DNA of 63,913 bases, counting the filler, from Neolecta irregularis DAH-3 (taxonomy: Eukaryota): NCBI GenBank assembly GCA_001929475.1. It is 26 parts of 26 records of this genome, joined end to end, with 100 filler letters (N's around TTAATTAATTAA, not from the genome) between each part and the next. Parts side by side here need not be neighbours in the genome. Positions count along the whole stretch, not along the records: positions 1 to 2,420 come from LXFE01001583.1; 25 more parts are not named here. One strand, 5' to 3'. The position numbers and the translations under genes are program-made. Position 1 is the first letter of the stretch. Each line of letters begins with the position of its first letter. Positions 1 to 57,597 of the stretch are shown here, in pieces. A model generated the notes under the pieces. That model worked only from the letters and a program-made list of their open reading frames with translations. It made no database searches and was not told the origin of the DNA.

Positions 1-335
1 ATCTTTTCTTTTTGTTGTTATTCTTTTCTCTTTATTATTTTGTGTATATTTTTCCTTGGATTCTTGTCCTTTTTGGTATTGATTTTATTGGATAGGTGAT
101 AGTGTATGATGATTTTAACTTTATCCTTCTTTGCTGAATATCTTTGTGGTATCCTCTTGAAATGCTTGTTTGATGTGTATTGTTGTATATGCTTGTATTC
201 TTGTGGGGTGCTTTCAAATTAAGGTATTTGTTGAGATAATTGTTATAGCTCTAGTGCCTTGCTGATCTTGTTGCTTGTTGTATATTGAATTTTGAATGTT
301 TTCTTTCTTTTGAGATATTTTGTTGATGTTTTCTG

Positions 336-2420
336 CTAATTTCTTTTCCTTTTTATTGGTATTGGGTATTGCTTTAATTTCTTTTTGATTTTTCCTCTTT
401 GATAACCAATATTTGCTGGTTTTATTCTTTTTTCTTGTTTTTTGTATAGTGAGTATTCCTGGGTATATGAGTGTTCAGCTTCTTCTAGTATTGCATGGCA
501 GGTAGTCAAAACTTCTTTGACCTCTACCCTATTGATCCATGCTCTGTTTCTTTCATTGTTAGCTGCTGTAGCTCTGAACTTAACTCTTTGATAACCTTCT
601 GGATCTTTGATTGTAATCCATGTTTCCCCTTCAGCTGTATTTTCTGATTTCATTTGTCCACTTCTCTCATATGGTCTTCCCAAGAGCAAATCATACTTTG
701 CATGCTTGGTAACAAAGATGTTTGTTGGAATTGAAAATCCTCCTGTTTTGACTGGAACATCATGGCAGACTCCAACAAGTCTGCTGTTACTGCCATCAGC
801 TACACCAATCTGCCAAGCAGGTTGGTCATCCATCATCAAACCCAATCTTTTAACCATTCTGAATGGCATCAGAGATATTTCTGATCCACTATCAAAGATA
901 GCAGTGATATGCTGTCCCATAATCTGAACTTTGGCTTCTGGTGATGCAACTGAGTAGAAGGGTTTTTCCACAGTGGGTTCCTTGTATTCTTCAAATAGTA
1001 ATTCTTCTTCATTGGTAATCCATCTAGATTCCATGATTTGTCTCTTTCCTTGAACTTGTCCTGCAATAACTTTTCTGAGATCTGGTGATAATGCTAGGAG
1101 TTTTCCAATTGAGGTGGTGATTTGTGTGTTAAAAACTTCTTTGGAGAATTCATCTGCTGTGGTTTGTCCCATGATTGGTGCTCTGACTTGATATTTTATC
1201 CCTTCTTCAGTTTTTTCTTTGGTGGTAGTCTTTTTGTCTTCTTTGAATTCAATTGGTTTAGCTTTTTCCCATATAGATGATTGATGATCTGGTTTCTTTG
1301 GTTTTCTGGGTGGTTTGAGGGTTGCTGCTGGTGGAGTTCTTGCTTTTTCTGTTATAACTTCAACTACTGGTTGTTTGTATTGAACTTGCTTTACTGGTTG
1401 TTGCTTGATTGGTTGCTGTATAACTGGTTGTTGGGTAATAGGTTGTTGTTGTACTGTTTGTTGTATATCTATTTGTTCTTCATCTTCAGATTGTAGTTCC
1501 ACTGGTAGAGGTTGAATTTGCTGGTGAATCTTTTCTTTCTTCTGAGGTATTTCCCATTCATAATCATTGGTTGCTTTTCTTTTGTCTGCCATAACCCAAA
1601 CTGGTTTCCTGAAGTATTGTTGTTGCTGTGCCATATAGGAGTTGTATTCATCTTCATTGTTTGCTGAGTCTGAGTCTGAATCATCTTCATCTTCCCAATC
1701 ACTATTTGGTTCTAAGGTAACTGCATTGCTTCTGGGGTGTTGAACTCTGATAAGGTTGCTGATTTCTGGTAAGGTTCTCATGCCTCCTCTGTTCCATTGA
1801 GGTCTTAATTCTTTTCCTTCAATATCACAGATTCTGTTGTTGATTTTTTGAACTTTCCCTTCAGTTAGTGCTTCTTGTAGTTCTTGACATTCTCTTTGCA
1901 TGTGACCTTCATCACACCAAATGCATTTGATTGGTAGGTTTTGATTTCTTGGTTGCCAGGTTCTGTTGCTTGGTTGATTCTGATTTTCTGTGAGGTTCTT
2001 GAATGCAATTGATAGTGCTTTAACCTGCTCTGCTAGGTCTTGATGTTCTGGTTTTATTCTCCTGCTTGTTGCCAAAGGTGTATCTCTTGATCCAGTTGGT
2101 GGTACTTTAGGTGTTTCTTGTTTGGTGCTTCTTTCTTCTAGTTTTGCCCAGACAATATCCATTTTTACTTCTTCCATGACTTTTTTAGTGATTTCTTCAA
2201 ATGGTGGTGGTTCCACATTGATTGTTAATGCATTTTGTAGGTTGGTTGTTGTTTTTAATATCTTGTTTCTCAATCCTTTATCAAATCCACTGAGAAAAAT
2301 GTGAATTCTGTCAATTGGATAGAGTCTTTGTCTTGTGACCAGGTGTGCTGAAATAACTTGAAATTCCTGAACATATTTGAGTGTATCTGGTTTTGCTGCT
2401 TCTTTATGCTCCTGTGCAAT
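336..2420 (-). mobile_element. Ty3/gypsy-type Gag-protease ORF (partial, open to contig end)
   Basis: Uninterrupted frame from contig end 2420 to stop at 336. CCHC knuckle CIWCDEGHMQREC, retropepsin IFDSGSE...LLLGRP, and a YKKQEKRIKPA motif of the kind that precedes pol. No CpG seen in the contig. Confidence 0.85.
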
Positions 2421-2520
2421 NNNNNNNNNNNNNNNNNNNNNNNNNNNNNNNNNNNNNNNNNNNNTTAATTAATTAANNNNNNNNNNNNNNNNNNNNNNNN
2501 NNNNNNNNNNNNNNNNNNNN
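2421..2520. other. Artificial contig-joining linker (N44-TTAATTAATTAA-N44); first of 25 in the window
   Basis: Identical 100-nt N/six-frame-stop spacer with core at 2465, 3981, 6971, 16243, 17789, 19800, 21421, 22920, 26697, 28271, 30162, 31376, 32867, 34273, 36442, 41114, 42774, 46602, 51169, 52594, 54423, 57144, 58828, 61373 and 62785. Confidence 0.98.
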
Positions 2521-2576
2521 CAACAACAACAGGATCGGAATAGTGCTCCTGCTGATCCTGAGGTCTGCTTGCAGGA

Positions 2577-3936
2577 ATGACCGACGGTAAAAAGACTTCT
2601 GTCAGTCTACTTCGCAAGACAGTATATGAAATCCAAGAGTTTGATGGAATTGTAAGGTCCAATTCTGAATATTCTAGTCAGGGAAGCGATACAGAGTCTG
2701 ACTCCGAATACTCGAAAAAGAAGCATCATTCCCGGAAACGCTGGAAGCAGAAGGTCAAGAAAGATAAGAAAAAGAAGCGTTGGGATCTTCCCGAAACATC
2801 AAATTCAGAGTCGAGTGAGGATGAGGAGCGAGCATCGAAACCTAGTAAAAATAAGAAATCGAGAAAGGATTCTACGTTGGCTAAGGGAGATAAGGAGACC
2901 GAACAAAATGCAAATCAGGCACTCGACGAATTACGAACAAGTATTTCAGATCTTGGAAGTGGAATGCGCGATTTACTAGCTTTGGCAGAAAGATTCCAGC
3001 CGCCGACTCTCTCATGGACCACCATCAACCCAAGTTACTTACAAAGTAGAAACGTTGTTAATCCTCCAAAGTGCAAAAACTGCTATCAACCAAACCATGA
3101 TGCCAGAATTTGCACGATGCCATGCAAACTATGTGGGTGGCAGTTAAGCCCTCCTCATCCATTTTACCGTTGTGAGCGATATGTCTCAAGAGGACAGCAG
3201 ACTTCGAATTCAGCAGCTATGCCCCCCCTTGCTCAAGACCCTCATACTCAAGTTGCTGAAACTCGCTTCATTGTGGGAGTATTAACAACCAAATTGTCTT
3301 CGAAGAGAATATGGATTCAGGATCATTTCCAGGACGAAGAGATGAATGATGCGACTCAGGATACACAGGCTATCCCACCTATCGTTGAAACTACAGTTGC
3401 GACGAAAAAGAAGTCGAGGGTAGAACCAAACCCTCACCCCCAGGCTTTTGTCAACAACATCCTGCGAAGCGTTCCTGTTACTACCAATCTAAAAGAATTA
3501 TGTCAATACGCCCCATCAATTTCCTCCGAGATCGTACGACAGCTTTCACCCAAGAAGAGAAGCCAGAAAATGGAACCTCAGCTGCATATCGCTGAGAAGC
3601 CCGAACTAAGTGCAGAGGTTTCTTCGGCCTGCCCCAGGACTTGGGTCGGTTTCCCTTCGGTTGAAGCAAACTGCCTGCTAGATAGTGGATCCGCTTCAAA
3701 TTTAGCATCGCTAGAATTCATTAAATACCTCGGCATTCAAGAAATCTATTCAAGCAATATGACGTTCTCGCCGTTTACAGGACCCGTAGTACAAGCAGTT
3801 GGTAAAACCAATCTCCGTTTCAAATTAGGACTACTGGATTACGCAGGAGAATTCCAAGTAATTTCCCAATTAAACTATCCATTACTGCTAGGTCGGCGGG
3901 CCTTCTCTGAACTCGAAATGACTACCTTGTGGGGGG
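2577..3936 (+). mobile_element. LTR retrotransposon Gag-protease ORF (partial)
   Basis: Two Zn-knuckle-like motifs (CKNCYQPNHDARIC; CKLCG...HPFYRC), retropepsin LLDSGSASN and LLLGR. Truncated by linker. Confidence 0.8.
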
Positions 3937-4036
3937 NNNNNNNNNNNNNNNNNNNNNNNNNNNNNNNNNNNNNNNNNNNNTTAATTAATTAANNNNNNNN
4001 NNNNNNNNNNNNNNNNNNNNNNNNNNNNNNNNNNNN

Positions 4037-4135
4037 TAGCAAAGTTGAGTCACTTAGGCTAGGTATTTCAAAAGTTCAGTCACTTGGGCTAGTATATAAA
4101 CCTGGTCTTATTCGAACTGGAGCTTAACACTTGCA
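4037..4135 (+). mobile_element. LTR fragment, family A (3' end)
   Basis: Shares AAGTTCAGTCACT..GGCTAG..TAAACCTGGTCTTATTCGAACT.GAGCTT.AACACTT.CA with 22976-23120 and, inverted, with 21477-21647. Confidence 0.75.
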
Positions 4136-4539
4136 CTGTGGGTTGAATGACTTGCTCAGCTCGCAAGATTTGTCGCGGCGTTGTATGTGCAACATGCATC
4201 CACAGAAATGGCCAGATAGAATCATTTTATATTAGCAATTTTGGATATTTAGTGAATTCGGGATTTTACCTATATAAAAACGAACACTCCGGCGGGTGGA
4301 CACTTGATTTCACGGGAACACGCATTGGAATGGGGGGGAATTCCAGACCGCATGTTTAACGCGTGGTGAAATCCCGCGGGTTATTTATACAAAACAGATC
4401 CATTTCAATTTTACCCAAATCCTTCAAGATAAAATAACAGCCAATCGTCCATGATCATTTTTTCTATGTAAATTATCTTACAACTAAGAACATCATCAAC
4501 AGAAAATAAAATCATAGCACGAAAAGAAACATCAACAAC

Positions 4540-4640
4540 CGACACGAAACAAAACGATGTAAGGAAACAAAACGATGTAAAGGAAACAAACGATGTAAAG
4601 TAAACAAACGATGTAAAGGAAACAAACGATGTAAAGGAAA
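4540..4640. repeat. ~18-bp minisatellite (AAACAAACGATGTAAAGG)
   Basis: About 5 near-identical tandem copies downstream of the PDE gene. Confidence 0.9.
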
Positions 4641-4982
4641 TTGAAAACAAAACCCAACACATTGACTGACAAAAGACTGAAACACCGATTCGAACGACTC
4701 AGAATACAAAAAGTACAACAGGAATAGTAAAGAAATAGACAGATAGATAGATGAAGTGCGACCCTTGATCCTAGAAAGGAACACGTACGTACGTACATGT
4801 GGAGTAGAGGAGGAGGAGGGGAAAGGGGGATATCAGTACAAATTCCGGACCGTATTACCTTAATTCCAAACCCAAACCACAAAAAAACCCAAAAGACCCC
4901 GATAACAGAGAAACCCACAAAAGAGAAAGAAAAGAAATGGCAAGATGGTGATGGAGAACGGTTGGTGCGCGTTGGTGGGGGA

Positions 4983-6926
4983 TTACTTTTTCGAGCGACG
5001 TTTCCAGAAAAGGAGTTTTGAGAGCCAGCGGTGGGCATGCATTGTACTTGATTCGGGGTTTACTAAACAATTACTTGATTCGGGGTTTACCAGACAATTA
5101 CTTGATTCTTTGGGAACTGTATTCATGGTTGTTGTGGTTGTGGTTGCTGTAGTCGTGGTTGTCGGGTGTACTTTTCTTGTTAAATCGGGTGAACTAGCTG
5201 ATGTTCGCAATGGAATCTGTAATCCGGTAGGATGAGAGTGTAATTCGGAAGGAGGATGTAACCGTGAATGAGAGTGTAACCCGGAATGAGAGTGTAACCC
5301 CAAATGGGAGGGCCCCGAATCAGACCCCAAATGGGAGGGCCCCGAATCAGACCCCAAATGGGAGGGCCCCGAATCAGACCCCGAATCAGACCCCAAATGA
5401 GACCCCAAATGAGACCCCAAATGAGAGGACTCCAAATGAGAGGGCAACGACTGCTGCTTTAAACCAGGACTTTGTGCAGCAGAGTCAACTCTGGACCCCA
5501 ATTTCTCCGCTTCATCTTTCTGGCGCCTCCTCCAAATCTCTGTATTAAGTGCAATCGAGTCACTAGTAAACTGCAACTCTTTAAAAATTCCGCAAACGCT
5601 TCGAAACAAAGGACCTGCGAATATTTCAATAAAGGAAATTTGGGAGGCGGGCTGAGAAGGATCGGAAGGCAAGTTTGGAGAAACACCGAGACATGTTTCT
5701 AATGCGCCTTGATTTGCGAATTCTTGTCGTAGGGCATCTGACCATTTTAGAGAAATTTGGTAGGGACGGGCCTTGAATTAGTGGATGGGACAAGAGAATA
5801 TTACGGAATTGGAGATATCTGCGCATTTGATGAATGCAGAACATATCAATTTGCATTGTTTTGTTGACTGTGAATTTGAGATAGGTGAACGTAAAGGTTT
5901 GACTGTGGGTTTGACTGTGGGTTGTGAATGTGAATACTCGACTGGTATATTTGAATCGACTGGTATATTTGAATCGACAGGTATATTTGAATCGACAGGT
6001 ATATTTGAATCGACAGGTATATTTGAANNNNNNNNNNTGACTGTGGGTTGTGAATGTGAATACTCGACAGGTATATTTGAATCGACAGGTATATTTGAAT
6101 CGACAGGTATATTTGAATCGACAGGTATATTTGAATCGATATGTATATTTGAATCGATATGTATATTTGCGACAGTTGGTTTCTTGTCTGGTTCTGATTC
6201 TAATTTCTCTGATTCCAATTTCTGGAACTTTTCGAATTTCTCCACGTAATCGAAATGTTTGCTCATATCTGTGGACAATATTGCATCGATGATTAGGTTT
6301 CTCATTTCATGGTCGTTTTGGGTTGCAGGCCAGTGTTTTGACAGCAAGGCGGAGAGGGCGGCGCAGTGCAGATTTTCGAGGACGGACTGGTCGTTGTACA
6401 TCTGGGCGAGGGGCGCCTTTGTGTTTACCAGAAAGGCGTTGTTTACGCCTGGGTGGCCGACGTCGTGGCCGATGGCCGCGATAGCGAGGGCGAGGCAGTG
6501 TGTGATGGACAGGGCGGGGCGGCCTCGAGCAGGGCCGGGGGGGCTCGCGGGAGGCCGGAGAGGGGGCAGGCAGCCTGCGTGGACGAGAAAGTAGAAGGCG
6601 GCCTGGAGGACGTCTATTGCGTGGCGGAAGTTGTGGTACGGGTTTGTGGGGCGGTAGGCCTGGCGGGTGGCGGCGAAAAAGGTAGCGAGGCGGTCTAAAG
6701 TAGCAAGGGGGTTAGTGCGCGAGCAGCGTGGCGGGAGAGCGGTACCCGATTGGATCGCAAAGCGCTGCAGGCCCGGCTGGGCGAGGATGTGGTTGATGAT
6801 GAGGACGCCGGCGTTGAGCAGGTCGGCGTCGTCGAGCAGGAAGGCGTCAAAGTGCCACGAGTCGAGCACGGCGACGAGCTGCTGGCGGCGGCCGGGCGGC
6901 AGGGCCGAGTCGCTGCGGGGTCAGCG
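4983..6926 (-). CDS. PDE2: Class I (HD-domain) 3',5'-cyclic nucleotide phosphodiesterase, 5' truncated
   Basis: YHNFRHAIDVLQA, HDVGHPGVNN, SVLENLH, STDMSKH, KCADISN-ARP and QISFI motifs. Introns at 6695-6745 (in frame) and 5772-5804. Contains internal tandem peptide repeats. Confidence 0.9.
5890..6170 (-). repeat. Coding 18-bp tandem repeat (SNIPVD)n inside the PDE catalytic domain
   Basis: Unit TGAATCGACAGGTATATT repeated about 10 times around a small N gap, partly duplicated as a block. Confidence 0.9.
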
Positions 6927-7026
6927 NNNNNNNNNNNNNNNNNNNNNNNNNNNNNNNNNNNNNNNNNNNNTTAATTAATTAANNNNNNNNNNNNNNNNNN
7001 NNNNNNNNNNNNNNNNNNNNNNNNNN

Positions 7027-9917
7027 CCTCCCGCGGCTGTTCCCCGCGCGCGACTCGTGCTGCATCGCCCCCCCGGCCTCGCCCGCCGCCGCGACCGCCC
7101 CCGCGCCCGCCTCCGACTCGGACAACTACGACTCGGAGCCAGACCCGCCGTCGCCCCCAGAGTCCGCCTCCGCCTCCGCCTCCGCTTCCGCCTCCCCGCC
7201 CCTCGCCCGCGCCCGCTTCCCCTTCGAGACCGTCTACCACTCCTTTGAGCACGACCGCCTCGCCATGGCCGAGCAGCAGCAGCTCGAGCAGGCTGACCGC
7301 GACGTCGCCCAGCACTCGTTCCGCCCCAGTCTCGGCGCCGCCCAGCTCTCCCTCAAGGTATCTTTCTCTTTCTGTCCCTCTCCCTTTCTCTCATTCCCTT
7401 ATCTCCCTTATCTCCCTCATCCCACTTATCCCACTTATCCCACTTATCCACTCACATTCACTCATCCCCACTCACATCACTCACATCACTCACATCTAGC
7501 ACCTTCTCGCTGCAATTGATGCAAATCGCTCTGCCCTCGCGGTTTCAGACTCCCACCTGCGCGCCCTCCTCGTAGAAATACGCAAGAACCGCTCAAAATG
7601 GGTATCTCTCCCCCCAGCCCCGCTCACCCCAGGCCAGCGAAGACCGCTTCGGCCAGGAGGAACTCTACGAAGCCGCTGAAAAAGTCCTCCTCGAGCTCCG
7701 CGGCTACACAGAACACTCCACCCCCTTTCTCAACAAGGTCAGCAAAAGAGAAGCCCCAGACTACTTTGACTGTACCCATATTGCCCCCCCAGTATTAATC
7801 CTAGTCATCAAATCCCCAATGGACCTCGGCACCGCAATGAAAAAACTAAAAACACTCCAGTACTCAAGCAAGGCCGAATTCGTAGACGACCTCCTCCTCA
7901 TCTGGTCAAACTGCCTGCTGTACAATGCTGATCCTTGCCATTTCATGCGCACTCACGCAATCGCCATGCGCAAAAAGACCCTCGATCTCGTCCAGTTCAT
8001 CCCAGACATCACCATCCGCGACCGCCCAGACCTCGACCCCGAAGAAGATGAAAACTCTGACCAAGACCTGCCCAAACGCATAGGCAAAAAATCTGTGCAA
8101 AAAAAACATCCCTCGAGAAAATCGCAAATCCCCCTCCCCCCAGTCCGCGACTCGCCCCCTCCACAGCCCTCTCCTCCCCAACAGAATACCCTCATCCCCT
8201 GCTCCCAGATCGAAAAAGAAGAATCAAGCCGTGACGAGGACGGCGATTTGTCCACTCAAATTTGGAGAACAGAAACCCGCAAACAGCGAGCTATTCTTTG
8301 CGTACGCTTCATACTAGCTCTGCTGACACCCAGGGCGAACGGCACCAGCTATTCAAAGATGACCGCTTGCAACCTGACATGCCCGCCTTGGAACGTACCC
8401 CTCACCTCATGCTCCGTTTCCTCCAATTCGAACAACGACACGCTGGCCAAAACATGGAAGAAATAAATCTAAACATGGACGATTTAATCAACGAAATAGA
8501 AAGCAAAGAAATGAAAACTGATGATTCTGCTTTTGCCGAATACCAAGTATCGTCCGGGATCCCCGAACTCGTTTCCCAAGACGACGACGCTTTTTATCAA
8601 CAGTCTAGTGGAATTTCTCTCCACCCTTGTGATCCCAGAATCTCCCCGCCCAGAACCGGCACAAGCTGTCTTGTTGACGCAAATCTACGACAACTGTATA
8701 AAATCAGAAAAGTTTGTTTGAAAATATCTGCTGTTAAACAAATGGCTACACAGTCTTTTGTCCGTCCCTCGCGATACATTGCTGACCATAGATTCACCCG
8801 CACCATTATAAACAGTATGATTCTAAAGAATTCTTACAACAAGACGGACAACCGAGTTATTTCCTGGAAACGCCTCTCCTGGTAACTCCGCAAATCGCTT
8901 ACATCGCTTTACAAAAAGTTTCAGCGAGGATATTGTATCATACTGGATTTCAGGGTATCCTATTGTCCTGCAGGGCTGATTTCAGATTTTGAGCCGCTGG
9001 CTTTAGATGCTTTTGCGGAGATAACCGCGGAATTCTTTCATAAAATCGCGAGCACCATTCGCCTTTTTAGCGATAATCATAAAACGGGGTATTTCGGTTG
9101 CGTGTCGTGTATTTATTTCCAGGACTCGGTATTCTATGGAGCAAGTCTTGTTGCTTTCGCTGAATCGGAATGGCATCCCGGATTTAGATGTCCTTGAATC
9201 GTACGTCAAGGACGATATTGAACGGTACGGGTGTAAACTCCAAGACATCAATAAAAAAATGGTCATGTTTCTCGCTGCTTTATTGGTTTTTTCTCCACAT
9301 GCGCAAAGAGTAATTCTAGCGACCTGCCGCGGAACTGGGAGACGAAAATGCATTGTTCAATGGGAACAACGAGAGTTTTGTTAATGGCGATTTTTCAGAG
9401 ACTACCGGAGAGGACTTTTTTGGGTTCAAGGAACTTGGTTTAGACAAGGAGTTTGGAATTTCTTCGTTCAGTGTATGTTGCCCGTCGCCACTGTTGACTT
9501 TAGGTACCGTTGCATTTATTACAAGGACGCGTTCAAAATGGATTAACAACAAAGTATCTCGCTCGCTTATTAAACTTACTCCCTAGTCCCGCTCTTGTTT
9601 CAAAGTACCAGGAACCACCCCCATTCACTCCTATTTCAATCCCGATAGCAGAATCCCAAATCGGTTTAATAAAATTATTTCTCCTTTCGAAATTGGAAAA
9701 CTTTGAATCAGGAATCCTGTTGGACGACGATGATTTACCTGCAAAACAACGTGCACCAAGACTTAAACTCCCGCCTTCTGGAAAAATATCAACACCTAGA
9801 AAAAGAAATTTAACTTTTGGGTTTGCAAATGTCAAGAAGAAGAAGAAAATTGGTATCGTGGAAAATGGCGAATTATCCCAGCCCCCTGAAAGTCCCGATT
9901 CCTCTGTTGCTCAGTAA
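7027..9917 (+). CDS. SPT7: SAGA subunit Spt7 (bromodomain + histone fold), 5' truncated, ~9 introns
   Basis: [25 protein letters not shown], bromodomain [32 protein letters not shown], and [15 protein letters not shown]. Introns include 7602-7632, 7772-7804, 8302-8333, 8760-8791, 9089-9122 and 9286-9319. Confidence 0.95.
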
Positions 9918-10737
9918 TGTTTCGTTGAATTTCTCAATTATTACATAATCTACAAACATCTTGTCAAATACTCGTTGTCTATACTCTGCCCTTTGTCGAC
10001 GATTCCATTACTAGCTGATCATTCCAAACTTTCAACTCTGTCTCGGGATTATATTCGGCAGTGAGCTATGTGGCAATATCATTTCAAGTCTTGCATTTCC
10101 TCGGTTATGGCTCCTAGGATACTGGAAATATCATCCACCCGCTTGTCTGCGATGCACTCGATGACTAGTACGAAAACGCATTGGCCCAATGACTTGCGAA
10201 ATGGTATGTATACCATTTCGTGGGAGCGATAATGAAAACGAGATGTAGTGAGTGCCCTAATTCATACTATATCAATGTGGAGCCGATAACTATTGCTATC
10301 GCATAGTGAAATATATCTGGCTTTTACTTTTTAGATAGTAATACTTTGCGGAACAGAATTAACATAGAACCTGGTTATAACGATGTGGCGTTCACGGAAT
10401 TAGGACTCGTATCATATGACGTTGGATGATTTTCAAGGCGGTTGGGTTGGAATTCAGTAACGGAGGTTCCCGATCCTAGACAAATTCTCAAATTACAGTA
10501 CTCCTGCTCTGGACTCCAGTACTCCTGTTGTGGACTCTTCAATATTTATCTTGTTCTTATTATAATTCCATTGCATCAAGGCTTTTAGATGTATAAAATA
10601 GATATTTGCCGTGTTAGCTTTGAACCTGTTGACAAGAGTAATTCAGAGTCGTCAGTCGATTAACACCAACTTTTTTGCACCTGCCACAAACTGCTGCTTC
10701 ATCATTTCGTAGCAACCTTTTGTGTCTAGCATCTCAA

Positions 10738-13700
10738 ATGGCTTCAAATGACCTCGGACTTGTGGTCAGTCAGCTCTCATCGCCAGACAACCATATTCGA
10801 ACTGTGGCCGAGAACTCGTTGAATCAACTTGTAAATGATCGCCCTGACATGACAATACCTGCTCTTGCAGAACAAACTCGGCGGAATCCCGACCCGCAGG
10901 TGTGCTTTTTCGTTTTCAATCATTAAGACGAAATAGATTAGAAGTCTTTGCATCGTTTTACTTCGCAGAATGACATTTAAACCGCCTCCTAATAATTTGA
11001 ATGGTAAACTCATCTGGGTCGTCATAGGACCTGTGGCCCGAGCACAAATTCAGAATATGCTGCTACAAGGTCTTGAAACAGAACAAGACTCTGCCGTCCG
11101 GAGGAAACTTTGTGATACAGTTGCTGAATTTGCCAGACATATCATGGATGATCAAGGTGCATGCTCAGGTTTACAAGAACTGATTAATCATAGGCAGCTG
11201 GCCAGAACTCCTCCAATCACTTCTCGAATGTACAAAGTCCGCAGATCCCTCATTCAGAGATTCCGGATACCGCGTATTCATGTTCGTACCTGGTCTTATA
11301 GAGAGCCAGCATTCTTTGCATCTCGAGGCTGTTTTCAAAGCTGGACTCGAAGACTCGAATCCAGACGTATGTCTCAATTATCTTTTACTCATTAATCAAT
11401 AAAGGTTCGTCTTATTGCCCTCAAATCCTTTGCCTCCTTTCTGGTTTCTATGGATACGCAATCAGCTAAAAGGTTCACTACACTCCTCCCATCCATGATG
11501 AATGTCCTTCCCCCTCTCGCCAGACCAGAATGTGTCGAAGACCTGATACAGGCACTCATTGCTGTTGTCGAATTGGCCGGAGAACATGGCAGAATCTTCG
11601 CCGCTTTGTTTCCTAGCCTCATTCAATTTTGTATAAGCGTCGTGAAGAACAAGGAATTGGAGGACATGGCGCGCCAATCTGCTCTGGAACTCCTTGTTAC
11701 GTTCTCAGAATCATCCCCTGCAATGTGTCGCAAAACTGATCAATTTGCTCAACTTGTCATATTTGAATCCTTGTCTCTTATGACTGAAATCTCACAGGAC
11801 GACGACGATGCCACAGAATGGCGTCAATCTGATGATGTATACTTCATCTTGAACTGGTCCTAATATTTCTAGCTCGATTTTGATGAAAGCGACTCGAATC
11901 ACGTCGCTGGTGAACAGACTCTGGACAGAATCTCACGGAAACTTGGTTTGCTTGTTTTTTTCTCTTAATAACGATCTAGGTCCGAAAACTGTCGTTCCTG
12001 CAGCTTTTTCTTATTTGCCGGGTCTCATCGGTTCCCAGAATTGGAGGGAGCGACATGCTGCTTTGATGGCTATTTCCGCTATAGCAGAGGGATGTGATAA
12101 AGCTATGCGGAAAGAATTATCTCGAGTGCTGGATATGGTATTGCCAATGCTTAGAGATCCGCATCCTCGAGTAAAATGGGCTGCATGCAATGCAGTGGGT
12201 CAAATGAGCACAGACTTTGCGGATTACCTACAGCAAAATTTTCATCTTCGTGTTATGGAAGCGTTGGTGCCAATTCTTGAATCTCAGGAACCACGGTAAG
12301 CACTTCCTTAGCTATTGATCCTAAAATCAGAGTTCAAGCTCACGCTGCTGCTGCTCTCGTTAACTTTTGCGAGGCTGCTGATGATGATTTGATCGAGCCA
12401 TATCTCGATGGGATTCTAGAACGCCTTGTTGGACTTTTGAAAAGCGATAAAAGTTATGTTCGAGAACAGGCCACAACTACTATCGCTACCGTTGCCGGTG
12501 CCGCAGAGACTAAATTCGAAAAGTACTACGATCTCATTATGCCGTTGCTTTTGCAGATTTTATGGCAAGCTGATGGAGATGATCACAAGATGCTGCGGGC
12601 AAAGGCTATGGAGTGTGCTACTTTGATAGGTTTGTGTCTTGCATTGCTTCTTTTTCATTATAATAGCTACTGCCGTTGGCAAAGAGAAATTCGCACCAGA
12701 TGCTCAACAATTAATTCAAGTGCTTGGAACTATCCAGCGTAAGTCACTCTTTCATAATTTTAGCGTATATTGAAGATTTGCAGAGAATATCTCGAAAGAG
12801 GACGATCCTCAAACAAGCTATATCATTCCAGCATGGGGTCGTGTATGTAGAGCAATCGGTTCAGATTTCGTTCCCTATCTTTCCCACGTTATGCCATCGC
12901 TTATTAAATCGGCAAAAATCGAGCCAAACATCACAATCGTTGAAGGTAGTTGGTTTGATCCAAAAGTAATTCTCATACTTTAGATGAGGCCGAGGTGGCT
13001 AAATTCGATGAAGGTTGGGACTGGCTACCAACTCAAGGGCAATATCTCGGTATTAAAACGAGTTCACTCGAGGAAAAATGTTCCGCTGTCGAAATGCTAG
13101 TCGTATATGCATCTGTTTTAAAAGGGGATTTTGCACCTTATGTCCAGGAAGTTCTTTCTGATATTATCATACCTGGGCTCAAATTCAAATTCAACGAAGG
13201 AGTAAGAGAAGCTTCAGCAAAAGCATTGGCTCCCATGATTGATTCTGTCAAACGGGCATCAAATGGAGATACTAATATCGTCTCTCAAGTTTCCCGAACT
13301 TGCCTTGATAGGATTTTAGAACTCATGGAACAGGACCCAAATGTTGCTATGATTGCTGAAGCCTATCAAGCGTTTTACGAAACACTCGACGTTGTTGGCA
13401 CTCAATGCATCGCCGAAGCCGATATCAACCGCTTTATTGCCGCTACAGAAACTCAACTCCGAGATTATGTTAAACGTAAAGAGGCTCGGGATAAACATAT
13501 CGCCGAAGATGGAGAAGAAGCCGAACACGATGAAGATGTTATTGAAGAAATTGAAACGGATGAAATGCTCTTTGGAGAAATCAGCAAGGCATTGCATTGC
13601 ATGTTCAAGCTCTACAAAGCCGCTTATCTACCCCACTTCAATCGACTTTTGCCCATCGTCGATGCATTTATGAGCAGTAATGATCGAAACGCCAAAAACT

Positions 13701-14422
13701 GGTCGCTTTGTTTAATCGACGATTTGTTAGAGTTCATGGGACCTGAAGCTATAAATTACTCTCAACATTTTGCTTCTCAGCTGATGGTGGCGCTCGAAGA
13801 TAAAGGCATAATATCGATCGTCATGCGTTATTCGACTGACGGAGTAGATCCAGTGATTAGACAGGTTACGGCATACGGGATCGGTGTTGCTGCTCAATTT
13901 GGTGGTGAGGTTTTCTCTGAATTCTGTGCACATGCTTTGCCTCTGCTGTTCCAAATGACTGAAATTCCGGAAGCTCGCGACGATGACAACGTTTATGCGA
14001 CTGAGAATGCATGTGCTGCGATTGCGCGCGTATGTCGCTTTAATTCGAGTAAAATTCCGAATCTATCAAAAGTTATCAAAAGCTGGTTTTCAACTTTGCC
14101 CATTGTGAATGATGAGGAAGAAGCTCCTTTCGCATATATATTCTTGGCCGAACTCATCGAACAGTATTATGTGTTGTGCGATATAGTCCATTAACGGTAC
14201 AGGAATAACCCAGTCATCTCCGGTCACCAGGGTCAGTTGTTCCATTGCATAACCCAAGCACTTGAGGCAAATACAGTACAGGGAAAGAATGCCGAACGAG
14301 CAGTCGGGGCTCTCAAACAATTGATGACAATGTTACCCCCTGCTGAAGCACAAGCTCTCTTTCAACACATACCTCCTGAGCGGCAACAACTTCTTGCTAA
14401 TAAATTCCAGTTGTTCTGTTGA
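10738..14422 (+). CDS. PSE1: Importin beta-3 / karyopherin Kap121 (Pse1/Sal3), ~11 introns
   Basis: HEAT repeats: [98 protein letters not shown]. Includes a GC-AG intron at 13806-13847. Confidence 0.95.
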
Positions 14423-15182
14423 CCATTGCTTGTCCTTATCCAGCATGTGATTGGTGTCATAATTATAGATAATGCTATAAGTCACTTTGTATATTGATCA
14501 TGATTATTTGCATCAGACATTTTTGATAGTGACAAATGTAGTGCCTTAACCTGTGCTCAAATGTCCTGCCCACTATCGTCCTGGCAGCCCTCACTGCCCC
14601 AACTTCACCCACAGCCAGAGGTTGGTGGATGAGCAAATGGACAGGTGCAGGGGCAAGGTGATTGTATTTTGTGACGATGGGAATACACAGAGTACTAAAT
14701 GTTTGTCATTTTTCTTCTTTACCTACTGCACAAATTATACCTTTGTCTTTCCTTGACCACTTTTGCCGCGTCTCTGCTGGATAGGAGAACACTGGATGGA
14801 ATAACGGTCACACTGGTTCGCGTCCGCCCTCGTCCACAGGCATTCGTTCTCACTCACCCACCCTCACCCTTGTTAGTCGTAGCTATACTCACCCTCACCC
14901 GCCTCGCTATGTATCGCTATATATAGCCATACTCTCTTCAGACCCGCTCGCCGCCCTGCACAACGCATATGTAGCCGCCGCACAGGTTTTAGCCGCCAGA
15001 GAACTATCTTTAGAGGTTCTCATTGGACACATTGCAAACTTAGCCGCGAACCTACCCGAAATTGCAGTTTATGTGTTTCAGACGGATTAAACATTTCAGT
15101 GCCATAACTTTTTGCAAATTGGTCAGCAGTTTTCTATTTAATCGAACCCAATGCCATCGAGCATTTTCAATTCACATTCGCA

Positions 15183-15668
15183 ATGAAGTTTCTCGGTCTT
15201 CTACTATACTCCCTGTCCATTATCGCTATATCTGCAGAAGAGCATACCCACAGCTACTTTCAAATACTCGTCTCCAATTCCCAGGCCTGTGCTAAAGTTC
15301 TGGACTATCAATTAGTAATTGATTCTGCCGGGAGTCAATGTGGACGTTTCTTCATCGACCCCAAGCATAATTTGTTTTTCAGTGACCCGAATGGTGCTGC
15401 CAATAATAATATAGCCGTTTGGGAGGTCGACCATTACCAATTCCATTCCGACGATACCAAGTCCACGGATAAATTCGCGATCCAGCCCGATCAACAGAGT
15501 AGATTGACTCTGGGATTTCGGGACACCAGCGGATCCGTTCACTATAACTTTTTTCAATGTGGTTCCATGGATAACAGCCGAATTCAACAGACCGCTAATC
15601 CATTCTTAATGGACAATTTGCCAATGAATTGTTCGACCCTCACCCTCACGACTCAATTTGGAGTTTGA
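15183..15668 (+). CDS. Small secreted Cys-containing protein (161 aa), FxQC-motif family
   Basis: Signal peptide MKFLGLLLYSLSIIAISA, four Cys, NFFQCGS motif resembling the FYQC of the 52826 and 55730 proteins. Confidence 0.75.
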   Translation: MKFLGLLLYSLSIIAISAEEHTHSYFQILVSNSQACAKVLDYQLVIDSAGSQCGRFFIDPKHNLFFSDPNGAANNNIAVWEVDHYQFHSDDTKSTDKFAIQPDQQSRLTLGFRDTSGSVHYNFFQCGSMDNSRIQQTANPFLMDNLPMNCSTLTLTTQFGV

Positions 15669-15959
15669 AGTGAAATTAGCTGTTGAAAGGATTTTACTTA
15701 CGAAATAGGGTTGCTAGCAATATCGAAATTGAGGGAAGAAACACATGAATCAGACTCTCACATTAAGATTTAATATTTTTCAAGACACTGCTGAACAATG
15801 TGTCCAACCATTTTTATTTTGTTTTTAATATTGCAATACTATATCATAATGCAGGTGGTCTATATGGTTGTGAGCATAGGGTGTCTGGACTTGCCACTCA
15901 GGAGGTTTCCTTGGGAATATATGATCACAATCAGTGTTGGCAATAATATGCCAATAAAT

Positions 15960-16198
15960 ATGATATATCGTATATTGTGTGATATGATATGGGATTTTTC
16001 ATATTTTGCCAATATGATATAGGATTTTTCATATTTTGACAATATAAAATAGGATTTTTTATATTGTGACTATATGATATAAGATTTTTTCATATTGTTA
16101 CAATATAATATAAGATTATTTTCATATTGTGACCATATGATATGGGATTTTTTCATATTGTGACCATATGATATGGGTTTTTTTATATTGTGACAATA
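15960..16198. repeat. AT-rich ~30-bp tandem repeat (ATATTGTGACCATATGATATGGGATTTTTC-like)
   Basis: About 8 degenerate copies running into the linker. Confidence 0.9.
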
Positions 16199-16298: not shown

Positions 16299-16399
16299 GA
16301 ACCGCCTATCTATATTATATACTACAATTTAATTGCCGCAATATTAATGCAAGCCTTCCTTCTGTATTGGTAATCGTGTACCAGAGGTATACGCTTAGA
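16299..16399 (-). mobile_element. LTR fragment, family A (5' part)
   Basis: Similar to 21548-21647 (GCCTATCTA..AATTGCCGCA.TATTA.TGCAAGCCTTCCTT..GGTAA). Confidence 0.7.
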
Positions 16400-17467
16400 T
16401 TGAAGGTACTCGATCAAAACCTAACTTTCTGCACCGGCTGCAACTCGATAAGGCCAAGTCTTGGTGATGGTAAAAACACTAAGGGCGCGTTTTGTAGCAC
16501 TGTCAAAATAATTTCATGAAATCAGATAACGTGAATATGTTTCGCATAATTGCAAAAAACCGTTTGTATTCCCTCGCCAAATCTTTCCAAGATCGCAGGT
16601 CCTCATCATTCAATGATCTCTTTACATCAACCACCATTCAACCAACCATATAAATGGAACACAACTCTCAAGAACTTATACATGTAATGAATTTCATGAA
16701 ATTCGAGGTGATTTTGTAAAAAGAGTTTGTCATAACGAAAATGATACACGTAGTATCATAGCGGTCATCTGATGGGTTTTCTATTGTTATACGTTTCATT
16801 GGTTTGCTACAATGACATGACTCACACTTGTAAATCTATTAGTCCTGTATCTGCACATTTGTAGGACGGGTGGATAATGTCCTATTCATCCCGCTAAGAA
16901 TTAAAGAATCGTTTCTCTCGTTTTTCCTATTTTCCGGTATGTTGCCAGAATCCTAAAATCCTCGAATACTCTACAACTACAACCTGTGTGTTACACGTTT
17001 TTGACAAAGTGGAATTTGGCAATTCTTTGAATTCCGATTTTAAGCACGTTTGGTGCGCACCGAATTTTATAGAATTTGGCAATTCTCCGAATTCCAATTT
17101 AAAGCGCGCGTTTTGTGCACCACATGAAAGAACAATTTATGAAATTAATTTATAATATCCCCACCCAACACGTTTGGCATGCATAATAGTGGGATACGGA
17201 CCAATAAAAATTGTACTTATACTTGAAAGGTATAGATGCTTAGGCTGGACATAGCAGCAAAAGAACATACAATGCTATCTCATCCTCGCCATCTTTTTCA
17301 CTCGCGATAAGGATGTAGTAGAAAACGGTCCATTGACATATAACAAAAGTCCTGTTTCTACAATGTAGAGAGAATACACTTCATAATCATTTTCTGAATC
17401 TCAAAGTCATCTGTTCACATCCTACCACTGGACACTAAAAAAAGGAGGCTCATGATCTCACTCAATG

Positions 17468-17743
17468 CTACTCAAAATCTTTCAAGTCCACCGGCCAGCC
17501 AGGCTTTTCAATGACAGTCCAGCTAGCTCTTTCCGCCATGCATTTTGCCATTGATGCAAACAGTTTGGCACTTTGAGTCTCATCACTAAAGTCAGAAGGT
17601 TCCTTTCCATGGCCAATCTGTGCATTCTGGACCCCAGACGCCATCAGGGTCATATTCATATTGGCATCGAAAGTTGGTTTAATTGCGGAGATAACCTTTC
17701 CAGATAGGATATCCTTCACGAGTTCTGGTTCCGCGCTGAGCGG
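17468..17743 (-). CDS. C-terminal fragment of an NADH:flavin oxidoreductase (Old Yellow Enzyme family)
   Basis: PLSAEPELVKDILSGKV...MASG.Q..QIGHGKEP.DFSDE resembles the C-terminus of fungal NADH oxidases. Cut by linker. Confidence 0.55.
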   Translation of the reverse strand, partial: PLSAEPELVKDILSGKVISAIKPTFDANMNMTLMASGVQNAQIGHGKEPSDFSDETQSAKLFASMAKCMAERASWTVIEKPGWPVDLKDFE

Positions 17744-17844
17744 TNNNNNNNNNNNNNNNNNNNNNNNNNNNNNNNNNNNNNNNNNNNNTTAATTAATTAA
17801 NNNNNNNNNNNNNNNNNNNNNNNNNNNNNNNNNNNNNNNNNNNN

Positions 17845-18030
17845 CAGGCCTTTTAATAGCCGCCAGCAGCAGGCTGGTATCAACCGGAACAAGTACAAAG
17901 GAAAGGAGAACGGAAACGGAAAACAGCAAAGATATAAACCCGGGAGCGGCAGAAGGCTGCACATCAGTTTACCAGCCTCCCCGGAAGTAGCGATACAAGA
18001 AACAAAAGAGAAGAAAATAGGGAACGCCAG
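17845..18030 (-). repeat. Dispersed repeat family B
   Basis: Reverse-complement homology to 41735-41890 and 33255-33365 (CTACTTCCGGGGAGGCTGGTAAACTG..TGTGC, TTTGTAC, GATACCAG..TGCTGCTGGCGGCTATTAAAAG). Confidence 0.8.
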
Positions 18031-18388
18031 TATCTTTCTAGGCCTGCCAGAATGGTGTAGAGTGACGAAGGGAGGGGGAGGAAGGTTGGGTGGTTTCTCG
18101 CGGAAAAGACGAATATATTTGTTGATCATGTTGACCGTGCCACAGGCTTAGCCCGGCCCATTAAAAGCTCGTGGGCTTAGCACTCAACTCTTTCCGGCCT
18201 ATCTCAGTCGATGTAGATGTGTTTCACATCATTTGTGGCTTTTATTTCCGAGACATTACGGAAAAGCCAGAAGCAACTATCTTGCGTCATCTATACAAGG
18301 GCTTGATCCTGGAAAAAGGTTTTACACAACTCTTCACTCGATAGGCTTATACCGCACAAATCACCTTGCAGTCCATTTACCCTATATC

Positions 18389-19684
18389 ATGTTTAAGATC
18401 TTGTGGTCGATCGTGCTTCATACGAATCTCATTTGCGCCGCCTCATACCTCGGTCATTTCACAAAGGTCGAAATTAATTTGGATAATCCTTTGGTTCGCG
18501 CCCTTGACAAATCCTTTGTACAAGAGAAGATAGAGATATGTGCAGAGAAATGCTTCTTGGAAAAGTATTTCTGTAATTCATTCGTCCTCGTCTTTACTGC
18601 GAACCAAGTCATCCGATGTGTAACATCTGAGTACACGGATTGTTATCCGCATGTTAGAACTAGTCTTCTAATGATAGCACGCGCCAAGTAAGCACCTGTG
18701 ACATATGGAAATTGATAATATAGTTTCAAGGAACCACGAAAAGTTGACTTGCAAGATGAGTTTTCCCGCAATATAAAATCCAGTACAGAGTGGATCAAGG
18801 ACGTTAAAATGGGATATCCAGAAGGCGTACAGGGAAAAGACTGGGAATCCTTTTTGCTTGGCTGCTGGGAATCTGCGGTTAAAGGAAAACCAGTAACTGT
18901 AGTCGATATTATTGAGGAAAATGGTCTTTTGTCAGCTACCCGTGATTCAGGAGAGCGAGATGCTAAACGACGCAAACTCTCTGGCGATGAAGAAATCAGC
19001 GTTGAACGCACAGTCTCAAGACATTCGATCACCGAAGAAATCGGTGTTGGCCTCAAATCATGGCCTGAATCTTCAGAATTCTCAGACATAATTGCGCTGG
19101 CTTTTCTCGATATATTCAGCCACAACATTAATGGAGACTACACTACTGTTTTCGATCCAATAAAAAAGTCTTTGTTTATCCATGGAGAAGGCAATTACCT
19201 TTTTATCGTTTCATATGGCAACGGGGATTACGTTATCATAAGTGACCGGTTGAATGCTGTACGACCACCAAGCATTTATGTAGTGGGTCCCTATCAGAAA
19301 ATCCAGTCCGTATCTGCCTTTAAAATGTTTTTAGGAGCTATGAATCTTCTAGGCCACCAACAGACCTCTCGTCGTCCTGATGAATTTCCAATAGGTGCAT
19401 ACCCTGGTGATAATACGGGATCAGCATTAGTTGTTATATTATTTGCAAGAGCCGTCCTTCTGCCGACTTCGAACTCATACTACTACACCGATATATACAA
19501 TCGCTCAGAGCCTGGTATTCTGAAATGTCTTATCGACATGGTGCCATTTGTGCTCTCGAAAGTATATGACAAGAAGATTAGATCCAAGACAACTCAGTCT
19601 CGATTATGGAAAAGCAGTGTGGAAAACCATTTTGAAAAAAGTATGCTTGATATTATTACAGTTCCCAAAAGCGATTCTGGGTAA
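18389..19684 (+). CDS. Orphan secreted protein (~420 aa): signal peptide, Cys-rich PAN-like module, basic NLS-like motif
   Basis: MFKILWSIVLHTNLICAA start. 36-nt intron 18688-18723 (GTAAGC..TAG) joins the two ORFs in frame. CAEKC..CNSF..C module, ERDAKRRKLS motif. Paralog at 21945-22875. Confidence 0.8.
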
Positions 19685-19855
19685 TAGTGTGTGGCACCGC
19701 TGACGGGATATTGACTGCCACATCAAAATTCAACTCAAAGTCGTCAACCCACTCANNNNNNNNNNNNNNNNNNNNNNNNNNNNNNNNNNNNNNNNNNNNT
19801 TAATTAATTAANNNNNNNNNNNNNNNNNNNNNNNNNNNNNNNNNNNNNNNNNNNN

Positions 19856-20258: not shown

Positions 20259-20509
20259 GGAGTGCACGCTGGTGGTTAGTATAAACACCAGATGCGGTCT
20301 AGTGGTGGAAGGTCCCGGAAGATACTGGAACCTTCCAGTATATTCTGTAGCCACTAATTAGTGGCATTATTATACTATAAGTAGATAGGCTGATGACGGC
20401 AGTACTCTTGTCTTCAACCAAGAGTACTGACGAGTCAGGTACGTAGCAATACAGGTCTTCAACCAAGAGTACTGACGTGTCAGCCCTAACTGATACATGG
20501 TATCTTACA
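20254..20509 (+). mobile_element. 3' LTR (256 bp, TGTAAG...CTTACA)
   Basis: Directly follows the PPT. Same length as, and highly similar to, 57340-57595. Confidence 0.92.
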
Positions 20510-57595: not shown

Positions 57596-57597
57596 AT

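Follow-up and report, generated by a model that had tools for sequence, protein, structure and literature searches.

The window, by which we mean the whole stretch of 63,913 nucleotides analysed here, is not one locus: it consists of 26 unlinked small contigs from Neolecta irregularis DAH-3 (assembly GCA_001929475.1, made from field-collected fruiting bodies), placed end to end, with 25 artificial linkers of the type N44-TTAATTAATTAA-N44, such as the one at 2421 to 2520, joining unrelated contigs. The first-pass annotation had compared the sequence at 1 to 2420 with host genes in the window; this sequence is one whole 2420-bp contig (LXFE01001583.1), separated from the rest of the window by a linker. 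Because the contigs are artificially joined, the SPT7-like, importin and ABC genes of the window have no physical linkage to it, these "host genes" being only co-assembled with the CpG-free transposable elements (TEs) described below, and we saw no CpG-free TE joined to a Neolecta gene anywhere in the window. Differences between a gene and a TE that lie side by side in such concatenated windows are therefore no evidence for local chromatin or compartment effects. The labelling of the host as a Taphrinomycotina fungus, a possibility raised in the first-pass annotation, is supported by an importin exon that is 100% identical to a Neolecta irregularis DAH-3 protein, with Saitoella, Pneumocystis and Protomyces supplying the next-ranked matches.

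The contig at 1 to 2420 appears to derive from an LTR retrotransposon of Ty3/gypsy type, of which it holds the gag-protease part. Its minus strand carries an open gag-protease frame of 694 codons (339 to 2420, stop at 336 to 338), a length that would stay open by chance with a probability of about 3e-21 at this composition. The frame runs off the contig at its 5' end, at 2420, so that the N-terminus of the gag-protease is not seen (the first Met is residue 82). The translation contains a CCHC-like zinc knuckle of gag, C-x2-C-x3-H-x4-C, at 1887 to 1925 (minus strand, residues 166 to 178), which is one residue shorter than CCHC knuckles with the usual x4 spacing. On the same strand we observe a weak DUF4100-like gag region at 1035 to 1520 (E = 3.5e-5, under Pfam's cut-off), a domain that passes this cut-off in P0243, P0283 and P0321 out of six scanned relatives, and a retropepsin domain (Asp_protease_2) at 672 to 932 (E = 1.5e-6; 29.2 bits versus a cut-off of 24.3), with the protease active-site D-S-G at 882 to 896 (minus strand, residues 510 to 512). 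Neither RT nor integrase was found on this contig, including the 335 bases past the stop; the domain order in a relative (P0259) is PR-RT-RH-IN. The "intact" ORF of about 695 codons proposed earlier thus stands as an open frame of 694 codons, but it comprises gag-protease only, without RT, integrase or LTR on the contig. No repeat of this contig was found elsewhere in the window, and it holds internal sequence only.

Over its whole length the contig is devoid of CpG, as the first-pass annotation had reported, with 0 CG dinucleotides versus 79.4 expected from base composition (GC 0.363), and the untranslated stretch 3' of the ORF (1 to 335, minus strand) also has 0 versus 6.5 expected. Across 1000 mononucleotide shuffles of the gag-protease ORF, the lowest CpG count was 50 (observed 0). 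A second CpG-free contig, at 61429 to 62740 (plus strand, CpG 0 versus 36.8 expected), belongs to another Ty3/gypsy element than the first, and its open 436-codon frame covers the protease end, the RT and the RNase H start; the RT aligns to RVT_1 over the entire model (2e-37), with 173 of 261 conserved columns retained. In both contigs the CpG deficit is accompanied by an excess of TpG (observed/expected ratio, o/e, 1.39 and 1.30, respectively) and of CpA (1.34 and 1.31), the window-wide values being 1.16 and 1.10, and the rise of both dinucleotides agrees with deamination on both DNA strands. A LINE contig at 28327 to 30117 (plus strand) is nearly CpG-free (6 versus 58.3 expected) and has an open frame of 502 codons (28612 to 30117, plus strand) with an APE endonuclease and the start of an RT. 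These three contigs share a GC of 0.34-0.36 and third codon positions that are 46-51% A, unlike other TE contigs, and the coding strands of the CpG-free elements are 43% A. The non-coding contig at 62841 to 63913 is CpG-free in its first 408 bases (62841 to 63248), and its 11 CpGs are mostly clustered at 63604 to 63731. Two candidate sources of such a deficit were rejected: classical RIP of the Neurospora type (CpA to TpA), as TpA is depleted (o/e 0.64) with CpA and TpG in excess, and a bisulfite-like or assembly artefact, as C is normal in non-CpG contexts (GpC o/e 0.92 in 1 to 2420).

CpG avoidance in these TEs is coding-aware, and the proteins look functional. All 90 Arg codons in the three CpG-free or nearly CpG-free ORFs are AGA or AGG, comprising 39 of 39 in the gag-protease frame, for which the absence of CGN Arg codons had been correctly called, and 33 of 33 in the LINE frame, while Arg makes up 4.1-6.6% of residues; in three host exons, 59 of 71 Arg codons are CGN. 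NCG codons are absent from both gypsy ORFs, and C|G codon joints number 0 versus 32 expected. When synonymous codons were shuffled, such joints averaged 28.8 (minimum 19) in the gag-protease ORF and 15.8 (minimum 8) in the RT ORF, with 0 observed in either. There are 273 possible CpG-creating silent transitions in the two gypsy ORFs, none of which is present, and by our own arithmetic (95% upper bound on zero = 3) CpG loss or counter-selection outruns ordinary transitions roughly 90-fold or more. With Arg kept as AGR, RT motifs retained and frames open, the pattern fits long-term purging while purifying selection acts, or avoidance of a defence aimed at CpG, not plain decay.

With respect to the other contigs, CpG o/e is 0-0.10 in the three TE contigs, 0.52-0.71 in four degenerate TE contigs, 0.77-1.09 in gene contigs and 0.85-0.98 as the median of host windows. 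CpG-bearing TE relics lie, among other places, at 19856 to 21376 and 30218 to 31331. The SPT7-like, importin and ABC host genes, previously described as CpG-rich, turned out to be ordinary (o/e 0.88-1.06). In a GC-matched comparison of 400-bp windows (GC 0.34-0.40; n = 15 for host, n = 9 for CpG-free TEs), the host median was 0.98 versus 0 in the CpG-free TEs, which are thus not at the level of composition-matched host DNA. The deficit is restricted to some TE contigs, with genes normal, and the intact exception among TEs is a gag-protease-like ORF of 458 open codons at 2521 to 3936 (plus strand), which has ordinary CpG (o/e 0.83) and uses CGN for 15 of its 25 Arg codons. The suggestion that CpG silencing or mutation is repeat-directed agrees with the TE-specificity of the loss, but the loss is not uniform among TEs. 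Within a single LTR pair, differences fall on 4 of 9 CpG sites and on about 8% of other positions, the latter by hand count, in a tiny sample.

We further observe a degenerate RT pseudogene at 30218 to 31331 (minus strand), with five in-frame stops in 352 codons (three of them TGA), a CpG o/e of 0.55 and a host-like GC of 0.41. It shares 46% identity with the CpG-free RT, to which it is sister both in a FastTree phylogeny (support 100, with 84 other relatives) and in an IQ-TREE phylogeny (SH-aLRT 99, with 44 others). At 18 Arg-consensus columns, this dead copy has a stop, His, Gln or Cys at 8, the top value of 86 rows (median 0.056), and CGN still accounts for 5 of its 12 Arg codons; the CpG-free RT has Arg at 8 of the same columns, Lys at 3 and a deamination product at 1. 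Judging from these columns, the dead sister appears to carry deamination-type damage at Arg positions.

The contig at 1 to 2420 was found in both DNA runs of one study with zero differences, at high word depth and with variants of ≥5% absent from both runs; the depths (X1, 185; X2, 688 over 1 to 502 and about 1215-1225 over the rest) are not convertible to copy number. It is contained in longer read-derived contigs that reach past both of its ends, by 790-1043 further bases. A HMMER search with the gag-protease gave 1191 matches (E ≤ 0.001), of which the best, self apart, have 29-31% identity, and the only similar-length homologues obtained were its own protein and a 30%, protease-only match in the liverwort Riccia. 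Among relatives of the gag region, those with a species name belong to fungi (Smittium culicis, Pleurotus djamor and Pleurotus pulmonarius; 4 of 20 clusters looked up). For the RT, the best-ranked named entries among the 120 matches listed come from green algae and plants, at 45-49% identity, and none of the named entries listed is fungal; the closest matches that lack a species label are metagenomic. A metagenome scan yielded 44 RT relatives, none of them close and with best-segment identities of 30-51%, whose CpG o/e over the matched part spans 0.03-1.62, with only the degenerate L035 near zero; neither these loci nor 8000 scored candidates include an RT relative above 52% identity. In a protein atlas, the LINE has arthropod and cnidarian clusters as neighbours, which is a lead only, and the neighbour taxa of the RT are uninformative. 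Viral contigs scanned with the gag-protease and the LINE gave no match.

We see evenly balanced chances that these TE lineages are resident and lost their CpG under a defence that acts by CG-directed methylation or hypermutation. The purging and escape proposed in the first-pass annotation is in this respect upheld by the TE-specific loss, with Arg (as AGR), motifs and frames retained, and weakened by the TEs that keep normal CpG. Counted for a CG-directed defence are the intermediate o/e of the degenerate TE contigs, the placement of the CpG-free RT as sister to a decayed copy of the same assembly, the fungal named relatives of the gag region, the unvaried presence of 1 to 2420 in both DNA runs and within longer contigs, and its CpG-free untranslated part at 1 to 335, as well as the PF00145 DNA methylase proteins that the revised version of a 2024 Pneumocystis preprint attributes to N. 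irregularis, together with the CG-only action of Dnmt5 (10.1101/149385). Counted against it are the unlinked nature of the contigs, with no CpG-free TE/Neolecta gene junction seen, the field-collected material, in which a co-sampled organism is possible, the shared composition of the three contigs, which would fit one foreign source too, the intact gag-protease ORF with o/e 0.83, the modest CpG hypermutability in the one LTR pair (tiny sample), and the algal and plant affinity of named RT relatives, the closest ones being metagenomic (among the matches listed). The preprint also counts against it, since the corresponding statement of its first version, reversed on revision, was that no Taphrinomycotina have DNA methylases, and since the revised passage leaves the class of the proteins unnamed, so that they could be DNMT2-like.

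It is unlikely, in our estimate, that the source of the three CpG-free contigs is a different organism in the fruiting bodies, for instance a second fungus or a small animal. On this view, their lack of CpG would stem from the biology of that other genome, and they would have passed contaminant filtering because TE-only contigs lack informative matches. Field collection would allow for such a source, as would three short TE-only contigs whose common GC and A-rich third positions are unlike those of other TEs, the lack of a host-gene junction within the window, the arthropod and cnidarian atlas neighbours of the LINE (lead only) and the lack of close relatives in the databases searched. In a contaminant of low abundance, however, a TE present in many copies would be expected to show copy variants, and the invariance of 1 to 2420 at high word depth in both DNA runs argues against this origin, as do the fungal gag-region relatives and the fact that the CpG-free RT has its nearest relative within this assembly, on a TE contig whose GC is host-like. 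A foreign origin would, moreover, only move the CpG-free state to another host, where it would need the same kind of explanation.

A recent horizontal transfer into Neolecta from CpG-methylating donors, whose signature the elements would still bear, appears decidedly improbable to us. Intact frames and the lack of read variants, which indicate that the copies are young or single, are what such a transfer would leave, the composition again sets the elements apart from other TEs in the window, and a 2025 preprint is said to report extensive horizontal TE transfer in fungi. Nevertheless, three families from two classes would each have required a CpG-purging donor, the closest RT relative lies in the same assembly, and no donor-like relative exceeds 52% identity in the 8000 scored candidates and 44 metagenome loci.

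Still harder to sustain is CpG avoidance without DNA methylation, whether through an intrinsic A-rich, CpG-poor bias of retroelements or through an RNA-level CpG sensor, to which we give little probability. The A-richness of the coding strands and third positions, and the extension of the deficit over the entire transcribed unit, with its 3' untranslated part, are compatible with it, and lentiviruses and mammalian LINE-1 combine A-rich coding strands and a strong CpG deficit with continued function. Their deficits are, however, partial, and occur in vertebrates, whose genomes are CpG-methylated throughout and which have a known RNA CpG sensor. No fungal RNA CpG sensor is known to us. Other retroelements in the window do contain CpG (o/e 0.52-0.83), CGN codons for Arg were in use in the sister RT lineage, and TpG and CpA are both raised, as in two-strand DNA deamination. 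Finally, that these are dead copies stripped of CpG by deamination, with frames open by chance, is extremely improbable: CpG decay is by our reasoning fairly gentle on frames, as only CGA to TGA yields a stop, but Arg is kept entirely as AGA/AGG, which cannot be derived from CGN by deamination, the CpG-free RT has a deamination product at only 1 of 18 Arg-consensus columns, a 694-codon frame would hardly stay open at this composition, and the truly dead sister has five stops in 352 codons.

Returning to resident lineages under a CG-only defence, the elements would have resided for a long time in a genome that is most probably that of N. irregularis, with CG-specific cytosine methylation of repeats followed by deamination as the candidate agent, or possibly an enzyme-driven, RIP- or MIP-like hypermutation. 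Copies bearing CG would die, through either mutation of CG to TG or CA or silencing, and only lineages with CG-avoiding codons and codon joints would continue to transpose. CG-free elements would offer no substrate to a CG-specific methyltransferase. Of this scenario, the absence of CG, its coding-aware character, its confinement to some TE contigs and the deamination-type decay of the dead sister are observed; methylation as the agent, Neolecta as host of the three contigs and present activity of the elements are inferences.

Horns et al. are said to have described, in 2012, a RIP-like TpCpG hypermutation of Microbotryum retrotransposons. As outlined for Microbotryum by Horns et al. 2017 (PMC5381629), the target contains CpG and the process is TE-specific, as in the Neolecta contigs, and the C-to-T mutations lower TE fitness; target-site shedding was predicted for Microbotryum as an outcome of the TE-host arms race. 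Unlike here, few of the 35 targets per Microbotryum copy are mutated according to the 2017 account and many remain, whereas two open gypsy ORFs of the Neolecta assembly have lost all of their CpGs, whatever the context, and the host is a Taphrinomycotina ascomycete. In Tuber melanosporum and other fungi, Amselem et al. 2015 (PMC4352252) describe a TE-restricted CpG loss with CpG-normal genes, similar to our observation, and attribute the CpG-to-TpG signature to MIP-like/Masc2-like methylation followed by deamination, but that signature is described as a bias affecting some of the copies, most of which are degenerate, in contrast to the complete, coding-aware absence in intact ORFs. Dnmt5 of Cryptococcus neoformans, as summarised from Catania et al. 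(10.1101/149385), performs maintenance methylation at CG only, in TE-rich repeats, and, a CG-free element being no substrate for such an enzyme, it offers a concrete route from CpG loss to escape; the Cryptococcus TEs, by the same summary, keep their CGs, with methylation conserved by selection, unlike the CpG-free Neolecta contigs. In the literature searched, we found no description of a completed case of target-site shedding, and no paper on TE methylation or CpG content in Neolecta.

Neolecta is an early-diverging ascomycete. S. pombe, its model relative, is without 5mC, and Taphrinomycotina are usually regarded as DNA-methylation-free on account of S. pombe and Pneumocystis. We tentatively propose, giving it somewhat less than an even chance, that Neolecta has a CG-specific, repeat-directed defence by methylation or hypermutation and that at least three retrotransposon families of two classes independently shed every CG and thereby became invisible to it. 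If the elements are Neolecta's own, they would provide sequence-level evidence of an active CG-directed genome defence in Taphrinomycotina, and a clean natural case of TE escape by complete removal of the target dinucleotide with the proteins kept. If true, this would also make target-site shedding testable, since the CpG-free families would be expected to be unmethylated, transcribed and the youngest.

The first-pass annotation had reported that the contig at 1-2420 holds an unbroken gag-protease frame of about 695 codons with no CpG at all, and both observations are borne out, with 0 CpGs found against 79.4 expected and 694 open codons counted. Observed/expected (o/e) ratios of other dinucleotides on this contig are 0.92 for GpC, 1.39 for TpG and 1.34 for CpA, and 1000 mononucleotide shuffles of the ORF never gave fewer than 50 CpGs (observed, 0). 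The ORF lies on the minus strand (339-2420, stop at 336-338), with its 5' end off the contig and its first Met at residue 82, and it encodes a CCHC-like knuckle, a weak DUF4100-like gag region and a retropepsin domain with D-S-G. Relatives share 29-31% identity and are mostly metagenomic, those named being from Pleurotus and Smittium. Because the relative P0259 has the domain order PR-RT-RNase H-integrase and DUF4100 scores above cut-off in three of six scanned relatives, the element is, judged by sequence, of the Ty3/gypsy type; contig 1-2420 itself carries no RT, integrase or LTR.

The zero-CpG observation is confirmed and extends to further contigs. Per-contig statistics give 0 CpGs against 36.8 expected for a Ty3/gypsy RT contig (61429-62740, plus strand) and 6 against 58.3 for a LINE contig (28327-30117, plus strand). 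The RT contig has a single open frame of 436 codons, which runs from a protease end through an RT matching the full RVT_1 model (2e-37) into the first part of RNase H; this protease end is unlike that of contig 1-2420, so the two gypsy contigs represent separate elements. In the LINE contig, an open frame of 502 codons encodes an APE endonuclease and the beginning of an RT. Upstream of this frame, at 28327-28611, we observe 16-bp repeats rich in C, as well as an exact direct repeat of 38 bp whose copies lie 99 bp apart; this stretch has just two CpGs, each at the same offset after a 38-bp copy. The first 408 bases of a non-coding contig (62841-63913) are also CpG-free.

CpG avoidance in these elements is coding-aware. 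Arginine is as frequent as usual, at 5.6% (gag-protease), 4.1% (RT) and 6.6% (LINE) of residues, and is always encoded by AGA or AGG (39/39, 18/18 and 33/33 codons, respectively), in agreement with the earlier claim that the gag-protease frame uses no CGN codons; in three host exons, CGN makes up 12/15, 26/31 and 21/25 of the Arg codons. NCG codons number zero in both gypsy ORFs, and the gag-protease ORF has no C|G codon joint against 32 expected. When synonymous codons were swapped among positions, a procedure that alters neither the encoded protein nor the codon usage of the element, the mean number of CpGs was 28.8 for gag-protease (1000 runs; minimum 19, observed 0), 15.8 for the RT (minimum 8, observed 0) and 19.8 for the LINE (minimum 9, observed 4). 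CpG counts in the CpG-normal gag-protease ORF and in two host exons equalled or came close to the mean of their own shuffles. Deamination of CGN gives Cys, Trp, His, Gln or stop, and never AGR, so that arginine kept as AGR implies long evolution under selection on the protein, as opposed to the decay of a dead copy. The two gypsy ORFs hold 273 sites at which a silent transition could create a CpG, with CpG present at 0, which puts CpG removal at about 90 times or more the rate of ordinary silent transitions (taking 3 as the 95% upper limit for the true number). If the corresponding ratio for methylated CpG in mammals is roughly 10 to 15, passive deamination would probably not be enough by itself, and the pattern would point to enzyme-driven hypermutation or selection against CpG-bearing copies.

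The first-pass annotation had named a CpG o/e equal to that of AT-matched host DNA as refuting its reading, and the CpG-free TEs do not show it: GC-matched (0.34-0.40) host segments of 400 bp have a median CpG o/e of 0.98 (n = 15), versus 0 in segments of the CpG-free TEs and medians of 0.52-0.60 in those of degenerate TEs. The other TE contigs comprise an intact gag-protease-like ORF of 458 codons (2521-3936; CpG o/e 0.83), a degenerate RT (30218-31331; 0.55), a degenerate RT-integrase (34329-36397; 0.71), a chromodomain integrase end with an LTR (19856-21376; 0.56) and a copy of that LTR (57200-58783; 0.52). The RT-integrase is a third gypsy fragment, on the minus strand, with an RT end, RNase H, an integrase zinc finger and in-frame stops, and it shows 33% identity to the CpG-free RT.

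The degenerate RT at 30218-31331 shares 46% identity with the CpG-free RT and has five in-frame stops, three of them TGA. The two are sisters with support of 100 in a FastTree phylogeny with 84 other relatives, namely 55 of 115 database matches (alignment of at least 300 query residues, picked by identity) and 29 of 44 metagenome loci (match of at least 280 residues), and they pair again in a 46-row IQ-TREE tree (SH-aLRT 99). CGN still accounts for 5 of the pseudogene's 12 remaining Arg codons, and its lineage was therefore not CpG-free while alive. At 18 Arg-consensus columns it has three stops, one His, three Gln and one Cys, and this share (8/18) is the highest of all 86 rows (median, 0.056); the CpG-free RT has eight Arg, three Lys and one deamination-type product at the same columns. 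On contig 19856-21376, the end of a chromovirus integrase (Tf2-type SH3 plus chromodomain) precedes an LTR of about 256 bp, with TG as its first and CA as its last two bases, which is about 90% identical to its copy in contig 57200-58783; the pair differs by CG/TG or CG/CA at 4 of 9 CpG sites, against differences at about 8% of the other positions, a modest effect from a small sample counted by hand. Between the two copies of a short palindrome within the LTR, CA and TG replace each other in pairs, which would fit an origin of both from CG. These patterns are evidence that CpG decay would be acting on TEs of the same assembly. Matched regions of the 44 environmental RT relatives range in CpG o/e from 0.03 to 1.62, the sole near-zero case being the metagenome contig L035. 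This contig is a graveyard of degenerate TEs whose frames are broken, and it illustrates how CpG-stripped repeats usually look, in degenerate form. Its positions 1-11430 have a CpG o/e of 0.07 over 11.4 kb with broken gypsy frames, and by eye some fragments may resemble a helicase.

The 63,913 bases are 26 small contigs of 1.1-9.2 kb each and not one chromosomal stretch. Artificial linkers (2421-2520, 3937-4036, 6927-7026 and 22 more), of the form N44-TTAATTAATTAA-N44, place a stop in each of the six frames and join unrelated contigs, so adjacency within the window is biologically meaningless. The host genes that the first-pass annotation listed in the window (a bromodomain SPT7-like gene, an importin and an ABC transporter) are thus co-assembled with contig 1-2420 and lie on separate contigs, physically unlinked to it. 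Its guess of a Taphrinomycotina host is right: the importin exon at 12959-14194 (contig 7027-16198) is 100% identical to 'Importin subunit beta-3, partial [Neolecta irregularis DAH-3]', followed by Saitoella, Pneumocystis, Protomyces and Schizosaccharomyces at 43-46%. Elsewhere, the minus strand of 4037-6926 encodes a cyclic-nucleotide phosphodiesterase and then coding tandem repeats (SNIPVD-like peptides); a gap of 10 Ns (6028-6037) breaks this gene. A small gene family with no Pfam match is represented on contigs 17845-19755 and 21477-22875 by two paralogues, with ORFs of 321 and 309 aa, that have diverged to 73% identity at the DNA level across 657 bp. The ends of contigs 4037-6926, 16299-17744, 21477-22875 and 22976-26652 share short stretches (54-138 bp, 74-93% identity), probably a small dispersed repeat where the assembly broke.

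The genome derives from DNA and RNA of author-collected fruiting bodies, with 199-fold coverage, 14.5 Mb and an N50 of 16 kb as reported (Nguyen et al. 2017, PMC5309816). Contig 1-2420 is found in two DNA runs, both from one study. In the first (X1), one 3994-base contig includes all 2420 bases with zero differences and overhangs by 531 bases past position 2420 and 1043 bases past position 1. In the second (X2), pieces span 1-2420 with overhang at both ends and no variant at 5% or more, at a word depth of 688 over 1-502 and about 1215-1225 over the remainder, depth not being equal to copy number; the step near 503, within the ORF end, suggests a second structural form departing from the window sequence there. 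Presence in both runs, the absence of copy variants, fungal gag relatives and a nearest RT relative in the same assembly argue for residence in Neolecta. Against it count the field origin of the sample, the TE-only content of all three CpG-free contigs, their common odd composition (GC 0.34-0.36, 46-51% A at third positions) and the lack of any junction between a CpG-free TE and host sequence within the window. On balance, we consider residence in Neolecta reasonably likely.

Our literature search found no account of TE methylation in Neolecta. The first version of the Pneumocystis centromere preprint states that DNA methylases are absent from all Taphrinomycotina; the revised version reports methylase proteins in N. 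irregularis at the level of the family PF00145. In Microbotryum, mutation of CpG to TpG confined to TEs is well established, with TpCpG as target, and the same is inferred for Tuber and rust fungi (Amselem et al. 2015, PMC4352252). Horns et al. (2017, PMC5381629) explicitly propose that TE variants with fewer target sites may be favoured by selection. Cryptococcus Dnmt5 is described as methylating CG only (Catania et al., 10.1101/149385). The present case differs in degree and setting: CpG removal is complete and protein-preserving in no fewer than two gypsy lineages and nearly complete in a LINE, in a Taphrinomycotina assembly. The proposal that the family was purged of CpG or evolved to avoid it gains from AGR-only arginine, codon-joint avoidance and the decayed sister RT, and is qualified by the intact gag-protease-like ORF with ordinary CpG (o/e 0.83). 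The data lend partial support to that interpretation, and the contigs would be a case of a known kind of process, TE-directed CpG loss, taken to completion in intact elements.
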